This document shows positions 53,526 to 64,000 of a stretch of 64,000 nt of DNA, one piece after another. The notes below the pieces were generated by a model, which was not told the origin of the DNA, searched no databases, and saw only the letters and a list, made by a program, of their open reading frames with translations. The position numbers and the translations under genes are program-made. The stretch comes from Candidatus Micrarchaeota archaeon (lineage in GTDB: Archaea > Micrarchaeota > Micrarchaeia > Anstonellales > Bilamarchaeaceae), in NCBI GenBank assembly GCA_043821365.1, contig JBDRCX010000006.1:256001-320000 (forward strand), given 5' to 3'. How positions within the stretch are numbered: the stretch's first letter is position 1; each line of letters starts with the position of its first letter.

Positions 53526-54704
53526 ATGACAAATCCTACTGTTCATAGAATTCAGTTTGGTAAAATTGTTCTTCCAGGTCCTTCAACTTGCTGTGGCGAT
53601 ACTGGCCATGTGATGGGTTTTGGGAAAAAACCAGCTGGCGCAAGAAAATTTTTGTCTTTGGTTGGTGGTCAAGAAGATCCTGTTTTTAGACAATTAAAGG
53701 AAGGGATGGGGATTTTAAGATCAAATCGTCTTCCAGCCAATACTTTGTATTCTGAGAATGATCCTGCAGTTGTTGCTTTTACAAGTGCACTTGCACATGG
53801 AACTGTTCAAGGGGATTTGTATGCTTTAATTGAACGCCTTATCGATACTCGCCCAGATCTAATGATTGATACTCCATCCGGACAAAGAATTGTTGATCTA
53901 GAGTTTGAAGTACAACATCCAAGACCATTTGAATCAGGGTATCACTTTCGTCTTGATAGTGAGTTTCATGTTCCTGATATATTACCAACTGCGGCCGTAT
54001 TGCTAAATCAATCAGAAAGAAGGTTTGGAGAGTTGGGTTCAGGTGCTGAATTGATTATGCAAGCACATATTACCGAACCATATATTCTTGCAGTTTCTGT
54101 TCTTCGTCATTTTGGCTATGATGCATACCCAGCTCAGGCAGTTGTTCCAAATAATGCAAACACAGTTCGTTTTCATCCAATAATTACTGTTATTGATCAG
54201 GACAAAGAATACCCACTTACAACGTTTGATCTTTTGCGTATTCATCCACCAATGGGCTCAATTGATATTATCAGTGATGTTGCTATGGTAGGTGCAACGT
54301 ATGCTGCATTAGCCGAAGCAAGAGTTAGGCATTTAACTGTTGAAATGCTTCGTCAGCATAAAGAAGGAAGAGAACTTTCAATGGATGAACTAACAAATCA
54401 ATTACGAAGAATTGCAGATGTACTTTTTGAAGCACATAAAAGATGGCCGGGGTGTCATTACATTAGCAATGCTTTGGTTTATGCATTTGAAGATTTTTCA
54501 AATACATTATTTACGATTAATCATGCAAATTTACAAGCTGAACTAGTCAAAACCCAACAATCCGGCAAGAGTCTTGGTTTTGATTTACAAGCTACAGTTG
54601 GGAAGTTCGCAGTAGAAGCAAGAATCACTGCTGAAAGATTTGCTAATTTTGTAAGATCCGTACTTGCACAAAAAATAGATCAATATGAAGCAACCAGTAA
54701 ATAA
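53526..54704 (+). CDS. Hypothetical protein, weak transglutaminase-like segment
   Basis: AVSVLRHFGYDAY...FHP resembles the LR..G.....H helix-strand motif, without the catalytic Cys. Confidence 0.45.
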   Translation: MTNPTVHRIQFGKIVLPGPSTCCGDTGHVMGFGKKPAGARKFLSLVGGQEDPVFRQLKEGMGILRSNRLPANTLYSENDPAVVAFTSALAHGTVQGDLYALIERLIDTRPDLMIDTPSGQRIVDLEFEVQHPRPFESGYHFRLDSEFHVPDILPTAAVLLNQSERRFGELGSGAELIMQAHITEPYILAVSVLRHFGYDAYPAQAVVPNNANTVRFHPIITVIDQDKEYPLTTFDLLRIHPPMGSIDIISDVAMVGATYAALAEARVRHLTVEMLRQHKEGRELSMDELTNQLRRIADVLFEAHKRWPGCHYISNALVYAFEDFSNTLFTINHANLQAELVKTQQSGKSLGFDLQATVGKFAVEARITAERFANFVRSVLAQKIDQYEATSK

Positions 54705-54708
54705 AATT

Positions 54709-54806
54709 CGGGCCCGACGGGATTTGAACCCGTATCCCGAGGTATCTCCTACAATTAGGAGGGGCATTCGAAGCCTCGTCGGTTATCCAGGTTGCCAAAC
54801 GGGCCC
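54709..54806 (-). tRNA. tRNA-Arg(TCG) with a 24-nt canonical 37/38 intron (54744-54767)
   Basis: Acceptor GGGCCCG/CGGGCCC plus G73; D loop CCTGGATA (A20); anticodon stem CGAGG/CCTCG; T arm ACGGG-TTCAAAT-CCCGT. BHB with CTTC/GGAG helix and 3-nt bulges GAA and ATA. Confidence 0.92.
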
Positions 54807-55532
54807 TTTTTCTATCTTTATTTCTTTCCGTAGTATTGATAATCGTTCTGCATAAGTTGTATTTGGTGGGCAATGACCATATCTCATCCAAATGTCATAT
54901 CTACTAGATTTCACATGATTATTCATACCTATCATGTTCATCCATTTAATTGCTCTACCCCCAGTTATCCAAATTCTATATGCATTTGACCATTTTGAAT
55001 TTTGAGGGTATACAATATCGCTACAATGTCTAATCTCTAGACTATTAAGAATATCTTTTGTTTCATCAAAAAGAGATTTGGACGTAGTGGTCAAATTTAT
55101 CACTGGATAATAATGGCATGTTCTTTTGAATTCACGGTATTTTCCAGTACTTCGTTTGAACGAAAGTGATCCATCGGTATCAACTAAACCCCTTAAAAAA
55201 GCACATTTGATTTGCAAGCTTTGGGTCTTCATTATAAATTTGGGAATTGAAACAATGTAGCTTTTTCTACCATAAGGAAATCCTAGTGAATGCATTTTTT
55301 CTATTATTTTCTTCTCTCTAATAACGAATCCATATGTGCTTCGTTTAGGAAAAATTCTTCCATTGATTACAGTTCGAAAAACTTTACTAAATAGCGGAAT
55401 TACTATATTTCTATAGTAAATCTCTTCTTCTAATGAACCACTCACATCCAGCTCCCTATTATGGTTCTTATTTCTCAAATGGCCATCTCCAGCATGGATT
55501 CCACATATCTCTGCAAGTTCTATATCCCCCAT
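54783..55532 (-). mobile_element. Free-standing double-motif LAGLIDADG homing endonuclease; last 24 nt overlap tRNA-Arg
   Basis: LAEICGIHAGDG and AFLRGLVDTDGS motifs. C-terminal GPVWQPG* is encoded by tRNA positions 1-22 (stop TAA in the D loop). Confidence 0.9.
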
Positions 55533-55575
55533 ATCTGATACACAAATCCATAACTTATCTATTTTTCGGGGGACA

Positions 55576-55608
55576 CATCATTTCCTAGATGGTTTAGACC
55601 ACGGACCC
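55576..55608 (-). pseudogene. tRNA 5' fragment (acceptor 5' strand plus D arm), putative displaced tRNA-Arg start
   Basis: GGGTCCG-TG-GTCT-AAACCATCTAGGAAA-TGAT-G; GGGTCCG can pair with the tRNA-Arg 3' acceptor strand (one G-U); TATA-like TTAAATTA at 55643-55636. Confidence 0.55.
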
Positions 55609-55693
55609 TTGAGTTGATTGGCTGTGTAATGTTCTTAATTTAATCATCCTTGTGGTAGAGTGGTTAAAAATGTTTTTATATACTGATTGTATT

Positions 55694-56395
55694 ATGCGTT
55701 TTAGAGACATTACTGCCACTGGAAAACATAGGTCATGGCTACCTGAATGGGGCAAACCCTATTCCCCTGGTTTCAAACATGCTGAAGTTCGTCCACTTTT
55801 AGAGGAAATGGACAGAAAAGGAATGCTTGGTAGAATGTTCTTAGATTGTGGTAGTGGCAGCAAAAAATCTGATTTTTATCCTGTAAATGGTAAGCGTGTA
55901 ATTCGTGTGGATGTTGGTATGCCTTATGGGTATTCAAGAGATGGTAATGTTCTTGAACTTAGGGTAGATGTCGAAACACTAACATTGGCCACACTGGTTG
56001 ATCTTTACCGTAGTCTTCCTAAGGAATGCCACTTTGCCGGTTCAGCTATTAATATTGTGCCAGATACTCTCATAGTGGTTGATCTCCTTAACTATGTTAA
56101 TTTCAGAGATGTCATACCACGACTTATGGATATGCTTCGTTATGGTGGTAGGGCAGTTATCAGTAACTTTGCTGGCATGGGAATTACAGAATTACTTTCA
56201 CAGGATGGAGTGAAAAACAATTTACAATTTTTAGAATTCTTATCTGAGTGTAAATTCAGACTCGAACATCTTACTTTTCCGCCTTTATTTCCACCGTCGT
56301 GGGTTCCACGTTCTGAACCACCTGCTCCATATCCGTCAATAGCTACTACTCTGAGAGATAATGGGAGCATGATATTGGTTCTGGTGAAAGATTAG
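55694..56395 (+). CDS. Methyltransferase-like hypothetical protein
   Basis: FLDCGSG motif I; start at ATG 55694 follows TTTTTATA. Confidence 0.5.
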   Translation: MRFRDITATGKHRSWLPEWGKPYSPGFKHAEVRPLLEEMDRKGMLGRMFLDCGSGSKKSDFYPVNGKRVIRVDVGMPYGYSRDGNVLELRVDVETLTLATLVDLYRSLPKECHFAGSAINIVPDTLIVVDLLNYVNFRDVIPRLMDMLRYGGRAVISNFAGMGITELLSQDGVKNNLQFLEFLSECKFRLEHLTFPPLFPPSWVPRSEPPAPYPSIATTLRDNGSMILVLVKD

Positions 56396-62861: not shown

Positions 62862-62924
62862 ATGTTCAAACAAACAATTGTTGTTCGTGCTGATCTAAAG
62901 ATGAACCGCGGAAATGACGTCTAA
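62862..62924 (+). pseudogene. pth2: pth2 5' stub: 17 Pth2-like codons, then 3 unrelated codons and a stop
   Basis: Translates MFKQTIVVRADLKMNRG-NDV*; 12 of 17 residues identical to the downstream Pth2 N-terminus. Confidence 0.85.
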
Positions 62925-63909
62925 TCCTGTTTATAAACGACCAAAAATCTATTTTTTTATGAAACGATATTGGGATAAGAAATATTTGAAAAAACAATTA
63001 CGTGCTGGCAAGACTTATCTAACCATTGCTAAAGAAAATAATATCTCTAGTACTACTGTTCAAAGAGCATTAAATACATATGAGCTAACGAAACCAAGGT
63101 ACGATTGGAATCAGAAAGAACTCGCTCTTCTAAAACGATACTACTGCCGCACATCCTATCCAAATCTGATTCTACCTCATAGGACTTTAAGTTCTATCTA
63201 CCATAAAGCTACTCGTCTTGGTCTGAAAAGTTCTAATCATTTTAGGAAATATAAAATTAACACAAATTTTTTCAAAAAATGGACAAAATCGATGGCATAT
63301 CTGCTTGGATGGATGTTTAGTGATGGGAATATGGCGGATGATTGCCGTTCATTCAGATTAAAATTGGCGATTAAAGATCAAGGAATTTTATATGTCCTTA
63401 AGCGTGCCATGAACGCAAATGTTCCGATACGTGTTCATTCACAATTAGTTCCCTCTAAAAAATATTATGCTCAGTATGCTAATCTAAGAGTTACTAATAT
63501 CGAAATGTATAATGATCTCGTTCGCCTTGGGTGCACTCAAAACAAAGTGCACAAATTTATTCCACCCAACATTCCGCCAGTTTTTGTTAGTCATTTCATC
63601 CGTGGATATTTCGACGGAGATGGGTCTATCTATTTTAATAAACCTAATACTATCAGAATTAGATTCGTTGGTTCCAATCGTACTTTCATTCTTTGGCTGG
63701 CTACTTATTTTAATAAAAAATTGTGCTGTCCATTTAACTTCAAAAAAACTCCAATTGCAAAAAAATTATGGCAATGCGAGTATTATGGCGATAATGCACG
63801 TAATCTATGCAAGTGGATGTACCGTGGTTGTGAGAATCTTTATCTTAAACGAAAACGAAAACGCTTTATTGACCATCTGAAAAAGAGAATGTTATGTTCA
63901 AGCAGATAA
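62914..63909 (+). mobile_element. Free-standing double-motif LAGLIDADG homing endonuclease with N-terminal HTH-like region
   Basis: AYLLGWMFSDGN and HFIRGYFDGDGS motifs. The ATG overlaps the end of the stub; the stop overlaps the first 16 nt of intact pth2. Confidence 0.92.
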
Positions 63910-64000
63910 TCGTTATGCGGAAAGATCTCAAAATGTCTGTGGGTAAGCTTTTAGCACAATCTTCTCATGCGTCACTTTCAGCTTACAAAAAAGTCTCAAA
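63894..64000 (+). CDS. pth2: Peptidyl-tRNA hydrolase Pth2, N-terminal part (runs off the window edge)
   Basis: Hand translation [35 protein letters not shown] matches the Pth2 pattern KQ.IV.R.DLKM..GK..AQ..HA. Confidence 0.92.

Follow-up and report, generated by a model that had tools for sequence, protein, structure and literature searches.

A LAGLIDADG homing endonuclease gene that runs into tRNA-Arg(UCG), and the probable replacement of the resident tRNA allele, in a DPANN archaeon

The locus downstream of map

The window, meaning the whole stretch of 64,000 nucleotides that was analysed (G000:C6:256001-320000), comes from a 1.2-Mb genome of 36% GC that is 87% complete and belongs to a DPANN archaeon; reads matching the locus occur in groundwater and biofilm metagenome runs, with no RNA run among those listed. 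On the minus strand the methionine aminopeptidase gene map (57301-56396) is followed by an opposite-strand ORF (55652-56395), an AT-rich promoter-like stretch, a short tRNA-like 5' end that we call the stub, an endonuclease gene and tRNA-Arg(UCG). The interval between map and the tRNA-Arg(UCG) locus downstream of it varies from 1 to more than 1400 nt across the genus. The opposite-strand ORF (plus strand, 247 aa) has no Pfam match, and its LDCGSG motif hints at a SAM-binding fold; homologues (38-40%) occupy the same map-tRNA interval in genomes G023, G063 and G019.

Contigs from an independent 2016 study match 55358-55663 (the stub and the start of the gene) and 54699-55160 (the gene tail and the tRNA) with 0 differences, which argues against an assembly artefact at these junctions, and no single independent contig across the whole interval was found. 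Contigs joining the flanks as an empty allele were absent from four DNA runs, a result that is uninformative on empty alleles since rare variants are dropped.

The endonuclease gene (54783-55532, minus strand) is a free-standing, double-motif LAGLIDADG gene with an intact frame of 249 aa that matches PF14528 (LAGLIDADG_3, E 5.6e-10). In a structure model with pLDDT 94, the two LAGLIDADG helices (residues 3-16 and 106-120) end in the presumptive catalytic acidic residues D16 and D120, and D16, D118 and D120 are invariant among 40 homologues. The top Foldseek matches are I-Tsp061I (2dch), which is the best PDB match, the TliVMA intein endonuclease and I-DmoI; the best match has E 1.3e-11 and TM 0.64/0.76, at 18% identity and with a profile search E of 0.0012. 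Motifs, acidic residues and the modelled LAGLIDADG fold together place the protein in the double-motif class. With dN/dS of 0.14 against the nearest orthologue (79% identical), the gene is intact and under purifying selection.

WhiA structures are among the fold matches as well, and purifying selection together with a conserved leader motif (described below) would also suit a WhiA-like DNA-binding regulator, domesticated at the tRNA locus and no longer a mobile nuclease. We regard this as improbable, given the invariant catalytic residues, the patchy distribution of the gene (2 of 40 congeners), the degenerating relatives at other tRNAs, and the stubs and allele swaps, which point to DNA breakage.

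The tRNA gene (54709-54806, minus strand; Rfam RF00005, 36.4 bits) is the only UCG copy found in the genome and forms a complete cloverleaf without the stub. It has a canonical bulge-helix-bulge (BHB) intron of 24 nt at 37/38 (54744-54767, minus strand; central helix 4/4 plus flanking helix). ARAGORN called this gene Ser(CGA) because it ignored the intron, and we rejected the call in favour of Arg(UCG). The first-pass annotation had the endonuclease tail encoding tRNA positions 1-22, and this is confirmed: ORF 55532-54783 ends in GPVWQPG and stops in the D-loop, its TAA being tRNA positions 20a-22, with an overlap of 24 nt. It had also singled out U9 and the U10-G25 pair as atypical. Both are present, but they are no peculiarity of this gene, as U10-G25 or C10-G25 marks a class of alleles, called class A here, found at 16 of 40 related loci. 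In the model the C-terminal residues that the tRNA encodes are without secondary structure, and among homologues the tail changes with the allele that is read through (GPVA, GPVW, GPVR, GPVV, GP or GL); the tRNA-derived peptide would then be a by-product.

ARAGORN miscalls most anticodons of the tRNA genes of this genome, many of which have long or multiple introns (to ~180 nt) and inverted repeats with T/A runs. Elsewhere on the contig, C6:111852-112172 (plus strand) matches archaeal RNase P RNA over its full length but below threshold (37.5 bits against a cut-off of 84; E 1.6e-9) and is a divergent candidate.

A TATA-like element (TTATCAATA, 54834-54842, minus strand) lies within the endonuclease coding tail and starts 36 nt before tRNA +1, and the earlier statement that no clear TATA stands upstream of the intact tRNA is probably wrong. 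The same 9-mer occurs in the same place, near -36, in all 9 Micrarchaeota-like orthologues listed. Across 122 loci of the family, whose sequences are related and so are no independent sample, TATA-like hexamers peak between -40 and -26 from tRNA +1 (17, 45 and 35 loci per 5-nt bin), against 0-12 loci in most other bins and 18 at -10; with the same reservation, the Leu codon at the TATA-like site is TTA in 75 of 92 genes, compared with 43% in the remainder of those genes. We infer that the tRNA promoter is carried in the last codons of the endonuclease. A promoter so placed would fix the spacing to the tRNA and put tRNA +1 about 30-36 nt further on, so that the ORF enters the tRNA and has to borrow its stop codon there. 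As a speculation, an endonuclease transcript reading through the tRNA would lose that stop codon on 5' processing.

On the other side of the gene, ~54 nt before the ATG, is a degenerate TTTCC-NN-GGAAA palindrome with TGA..GTC (55572-55589, minus strand). Its core (GGAAAT) precedes 22 of 30 related endonuclease genes, mostly 48-82 nt upstream, and occurs in 5.9% of random windows. We call this the leader motif, and the unit from the motif through the tRNA the cassette.

The stub and the allele it resembles

The first base of the stub is 55608, which places it 802 nt upstream of the tRNA and 28-35 nt after TTAAATTA (55643-55636). This sequence belongs to a TATA-like element (55631-55643, minus strand), ~30-35 nt before the stub, that is a candidate part of the original tRNA promoter; AT-rich boxes stand at the same spacing before the endonuclease-free tRNA-Arg genes of congeners G024, G015, G035 and G011. 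The first-pass annotation had reported a tRNA-like 5' stub ~800 nt upstream and 28-35 nt after a TATA-like sequence, and the stub is real. It had been read as the displaced original positions 1-26, including a self-consistent D arm (GGAAA TGAT G); the displacement holds up, as set out below, but its extent does not. The apparent 3' strand of the D arm is the conserved leader motif and no tRNA sequence, so the stub ends at position 15 (55594-55608, minus strand).

G024 and G015 are the closest congeners, forming a clade with G000 and genome P0002 on the MAP tree (support 100/99); for the unlinked EF-2 the match to G024/G015 is 91%, other full-length matches reaching at most 88%. We looked for the endonuclease in both genomes and it was absent. 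Their tRNA-Arg(UCG), downstream of map, has the D stem GCCT/GGGC (class B), and the present tRNA has TGGC/ACCG (class A). Among 2.4 million genome positions, the stub is the sole 13/15 match to the tRNA 5' end of these sister species, and both mismatches are C to T; endonuclease-free close relatives thus resemble the stub over positions 1-15, as had been anticipated. The stub matches the present tRNA at 9 of 15 positions, and the present tRNA matches G024/G015 at 10 of 15. The D-stem strand of the stub pairs 4/4 with the 3' strand of G024/G015 but 1/4 with that of the present tRNA.

The nearest orthologous cassette, L053 in P0002, has a stub 14/15 identical to that of the window with the same 4-nt spacing to the leader motif. 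Here the tRNA 1-15 stub lies one base past the map stop, a site occupied by cassette-free tRNAs in G001 and G005, and it is directly followed by a TTTCC-TA-GGAAA palindrome, the endonuclease gene and a tRNA whose exons are identical to those of the window. The unique genome match and the conservation in L053 exclude a chance match. Possibly the stub formed a single time, in a donor lineage, and was then carried along by the cassette. In the closely related cassettes L055, L056 and L059 the leader motif is present and the stub absent, so the stub is no fixed part of the cassette. The two nearest orthologous cassettes (L053:3226-3330; L015/L032) have an extra D-loop tRNA intron that holds the endonuclease stop codon.

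From their sequences, the stub and the present tRNA do not appear able to be spliced or paired into one tRNA. If the 800 nt were a large D-loop BHB intron, like the archaeal rRNA introns that encode endonucleases, the stub would be spliced onto the remainder of the tRNA; the nearest matches of the protein are the intron-encoded I-Tsp061I and I-DmoI, and D-loop introns are common in tRNA-Arg(UCG) (9 of 40 loci). However, a BHB was not found at the D-arm junctions, the two weak candidates at positions 7-8 come from acceptor self-similarity, the D stem of the spliced product pairs 1/4, and the downstream gene is already a complete cloverleaf. We consider such an intron very improbable, and an I-DmoI type of BHB-intron-encoded endonuclease is largely refuted by the junctions and the chimeric D stem.

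Split tRNAs are known in DPANN archaea, and in a genome that is 87% complete a partner might be missed if the stub were the 5' half of a tRNA joined in trans. An orphan 3' half, which the first-pass annotation had named as the counter-evidence to look for, is nevertheless absent among 54 T-arm candidates of the assembled genome, similar 3' acceptors all have 5' halves of their own, and a 15-nt piece has no anticodon arm. A split tRNA, like a chance match, is scarcely credible. We also rejected a tRNA-targeting integrative element: the only ORF is the PF14528 protein, with no integrase, and at 9/15 the stub and the tRNA are not the near-identical repeats of an att site.

The present tRNA differs from that of G024 at 19 exon positions: 5 of them fall in positions 1-15, 8 in 22-31 and 6 in 38-52, and the T loop and the acceptor 3' strand are identical. 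This pattern points to a replaced tract that starts at the 5' end and reaches roughly the variable loop; the right crossover probably lies in the T arm, and nearly a whole foreign tRNA allele appears to have been delivered with the cassette. The proposal that the element supplied a new acceptor and D arm was therefore right about a replacement but too narrow, as the anticodon stem, intron and variable loop are donor-type as well.

A class A gene with only 5 changes from the present tRNA exists in G007, which has no endonuclease: the same positions 1-26 stand next to map with no cassette or visible relic. The present 5' end is thus an ordinary circulating allele that the coding tail did not invent. 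An endonuclease-free relative with this 5' end had been named in advance as evidence against displacement, and formally G007 is one; the reading is kept because the nearer relatives are class B, so that the G007 allele is not shown to be ancestral here. Forcing G000 and P0002 together with G007 on the MAP tree was rejected (p-AU 8e-7).

The chief alternative is that the cassette entered a gene already of class A, at the junction of promoter and tRNA, the stub being older debris at the cassette's left end and the allele diversity ordinary gene exchange. G007 fits this, as do the 16 of 40 loci that are class A, nearly all of them without an endonuclease gene, and the ~90% of family members that are stubless. 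Against it, two unlinked markers give class B genomes as the nearest relatives, the stub lies at the ancestral tRNA position and promoter distance, and the stubless L055, L056 and L059 do not suit debris carried at the cassette end. We judge it unlikely, though worth keeping in mind.

The endonuclease family and the diversity of tRNA-Arg(UCG)

In all, 285 homologues were found, from Micrarchaeota, Iainarchaeum, Woesearchaeota, Pacearchaeota, Aenigmatarchaeota and Nanoarchaeota. In the related-locus search an alignment as query gave matches, and a single-sequence query matched nothing in two collections. A credible tRNA 5' end is present at 114 of 129 distinct full-length loci, and 113 of 114 homologues are tRNA-linked, with the tRNA overlapping the ORF in 85 and within 45 nt in 28; 93 of the tRNAs were called UCG. 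The endonuclease family is thus tied to tRNA-Arg(UCG) across DPANN archaea.

Upstream tRNA 5' stubs were called at ~12 of 109 loci on the basis of a score gap (12 loci at 14.2 or more, the rest at 6.4 or less), in a scan with a high control tail that probably reflects real tRNAs in the control windows; L199 had its own tRNA mis-assigned and the stub of L105 fell outside the filter. L172, L173, L175 and L176 are related, so independent stub events are fewer than ~12. Ten of the stubs are clearly unlike the downstream tRNA (8-11 of 15). Judged by eye, the stubs of the family stop at about positions 13 to 26 and none extends further; in L148 an entire class A-like D arm survives ahead of a different allele. 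At L061 and L122 stub and replacement agree at 15/15 and 14/15, and in L061 19 identical nt (1906-1924) are a plain duplication; any immunity there cannot come from positions 1-15 and must lie further 3'.

Cassettes with the leader motif are also found at tRNA-iMet, Phe, Glu and Arg(CCU), and at pth2 in this genome. In congeners, divergent (24-34%) LAGLIDADG genes (L033-L052) stand directly before or run into tRNA-iMet, Phe, Lys(CUU), Arg(CCU) and Glu, and in L033, L035, L039, L048 and L050 the gene lies on the opposite strand, tail-to-tail with the tRNA. G000 has further cassettes before tRNA-Phe, into tRNA-Glu(UUC), upstream of tRNA-iMet (where the frame stops after ~80 codons) and at pth2 (C6:321665-321904, minus; C6:462895-463134, plus; C6 ~37996, minus; window 62900-64000); the leader motif GCGGAAAT is common to three of them, and the motif core precedes those at pth2, tRNA-Glu and tRNA-iMet. 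At C6:707612 (minus) and C6:186947 (plus), a good leader motif with a TATA-like box has no endonuclease ORF behind it; these copies are possibly relics of lost cassettes or sites for a host regulator.

The 40 related sequences of the tRNA-Arg(UCG) locus contain 11 D-stem combinations with compensated pairs, in three classes (16 A, 13 B and 11 C). A parse of the G37 alleles as Arg(CCG), which would mean an anticodon switch, was rejected, since they re-parse as Arg(UCG). Only one D-stem 5' strand each was seen in the genus for Lys(UUU), Lys(CUU), Ile(GAU), the UAU-anticodon tRNA, Arg(UCU), Arg(CCU) and Val, read by eye among the rows listed (about half of the rows). The Arg(UCG) D stem is thus hypervariable in the genus, unlike the other tRNAs compared; Arg(CCU) also has cassettes, yet its D stem does not vary. 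Sisters on the MAP tree can differ in class (G007 A and G004 C; G032 A and G027 C). Mapped on this tree, allele class needs 16 changes against 17.6 when shuffled (235 of 1000), which is no signal in a test of low power, as 18 of 37 forks are unresolved. This endonuclease is found in 2 of 40 congeners and class A alleles at 16 of 40 loci; spread of the class with the cassette would require that cassettes were lost, that co-conversion left the cassette out, or that alleles moved by some other route.

D-loop introns occur in 9 of the 40 loci and T-loop introns in several. The G003 assembly has the same class A tRNA-Arg(UCG) twice (C7:2133-2220 and C91:2329-2442), one copy next to map. Many congeners have a tRNA (Ile) with the UAU anticodon, which is uncommon in archaea (for example G027:C39:5391-5429 and G061:C8:583457-583495).

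Proposed invasion and its precedents

We propose, with a probability of roughly 0.7, that a one-gene homing cassette invaded the resident tRNA-Arg(UCG) gene downstream of map, left its 5' end behind as the stub and supplied a replacement allele. The cassette would consist of the leader motif, its own promoter region, the LAGLIDADG endonuclease, a tRNA promoter in the coding tail and the tRNA-Arg(UCG). The enzyme would cut a sensitive, cassette-free allele in the D arm or at the start of the anticodon arm, a region suggested by the range over which family stubs end. At the right end, recombination repair in the conserved T arm and acceptor of the donor tRNA would copy in the donor allele, which resists cutting. 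At the left end, which has no homology, the leader would be joined non-homologously to the cut and trimmed resident gene. The old promoter and positions 1-15 would be left as a dead stub that later decays, and the replacement tRNA would be transcribed from the TATA box within the last codons of the endonuclease.

More tentatively, and with somewhat less than even odds in our estimate, intron-less LAGLIDADG cassettes across DPANN archaea may be in an arms race over the single essential tRNA-Arg(UCG) gene, each carrying an allele that it cannot cut, overwriting others and shuffling D-stem and anticodon-stem variants, possibly with D-loop introns, among species independently of host phylogeny. 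If this is so, a selfish nuclease would account for the unusual diversity of an RNA central to translation, and the idea gives a testable reason why one tRNA has 11 D-stem versions, in three classes, within one genus. Homing endonucleases in essential genes normally survive by splicing out, as introns or inteins; this family seems to destroy the resident tRNA gene and to hand over a replacement with what is probably its own promoter. The locus provides a before-and-after comparison, in which sister species show the state without the cassette, the stub preserves the start of the old allele and the present tRNA is a foreign one. It adds this sister-species control, whole-allele replacement, a promoter signal in the coding tail and D-stem hypervariability specific to one tRNA. 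Exchange of DNA between DPANN cells would be implied, and the family would offer many natural sets of enzyme, sensitive allele and resistant allele for studies of LAGLIDADG specificity. A literature search with subscription journals mostly outside its reach found no description of LAGLIDADG cassettes at DPANN tRNA genes or of tRNA D-stem variation of this kind.

In fold and two-motif architecture the enzyme resembles the archaeal monomeric LAGLIDADG enzymes I-Tsp061I and I-DmoI, at 18% identity. These reside in spliced introns of rRNA genes, whereas the present gene lies outside any intron.

The mobile ORFs (mORFs) of fungal mitochondria, in atp6 of Allomyces macrogynus and in atp6, atp9, cox2 and nad3 of Glomus, are intron-less endonuclease ORFs in essential genes that bring a foreign replacement terminus, the displaced native terminus being nearer to close relatives (PMC3630166). 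Here too, an intron-less endonuclease ORF lies between a native remnant (55608-55594) and a duplicated tRNA terminus, and the stub is nearer to the relatives' allele (13/15) than the replacement is (10/15). mORFs displace the 3' terminus of mitochondrial protein genes, whereas this cassette displaces the 5' end of an archaeal chromosomal tRNA gene, replaces nearly the whole gene and apparently keeps the tRNA promoter inside its coding tail. By analogy, the cassette would work like an mORF, though it is no member of that class.

Free-standing endonucleases of T4-like phages, such as SegB in a tRNA cluster, SegF and SegG, spread by intronless homing, in which the other allele is cut and its flanks are co-converted, and host promoters lying within the endonuclease gene help to retain it (PMC2988022). 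The cassette endonuclease likewise lies in no intron or intein, but it is a LAGLIDADG enzyme and those of T4 are GIY-YIG or HNH. SegB sits between genes and cuts intergenic DNA of the tRNA cluster, whereas the stubs would place insertion of the cassette within the D arm, and it overlaps the replacement of the tRNA gene it breaks into.

In its layout, the closest archaeal parallel appears to be tRNA-Thr(GGU) of Caldiarchaeum subterraneum, with a 1.9-kb insert of possible plasmid origin whose ORF was read as a recombinase (PMC3293823). The Caldiarchaeum ORF does not overlap the tRNA, and LAGLIDADG is unmentioned in that report; at both loci a fragment of a tRNA 5' end lies upstream, an ORF immediately precedes the intact tRNA, and the version of the tRNA has changed.
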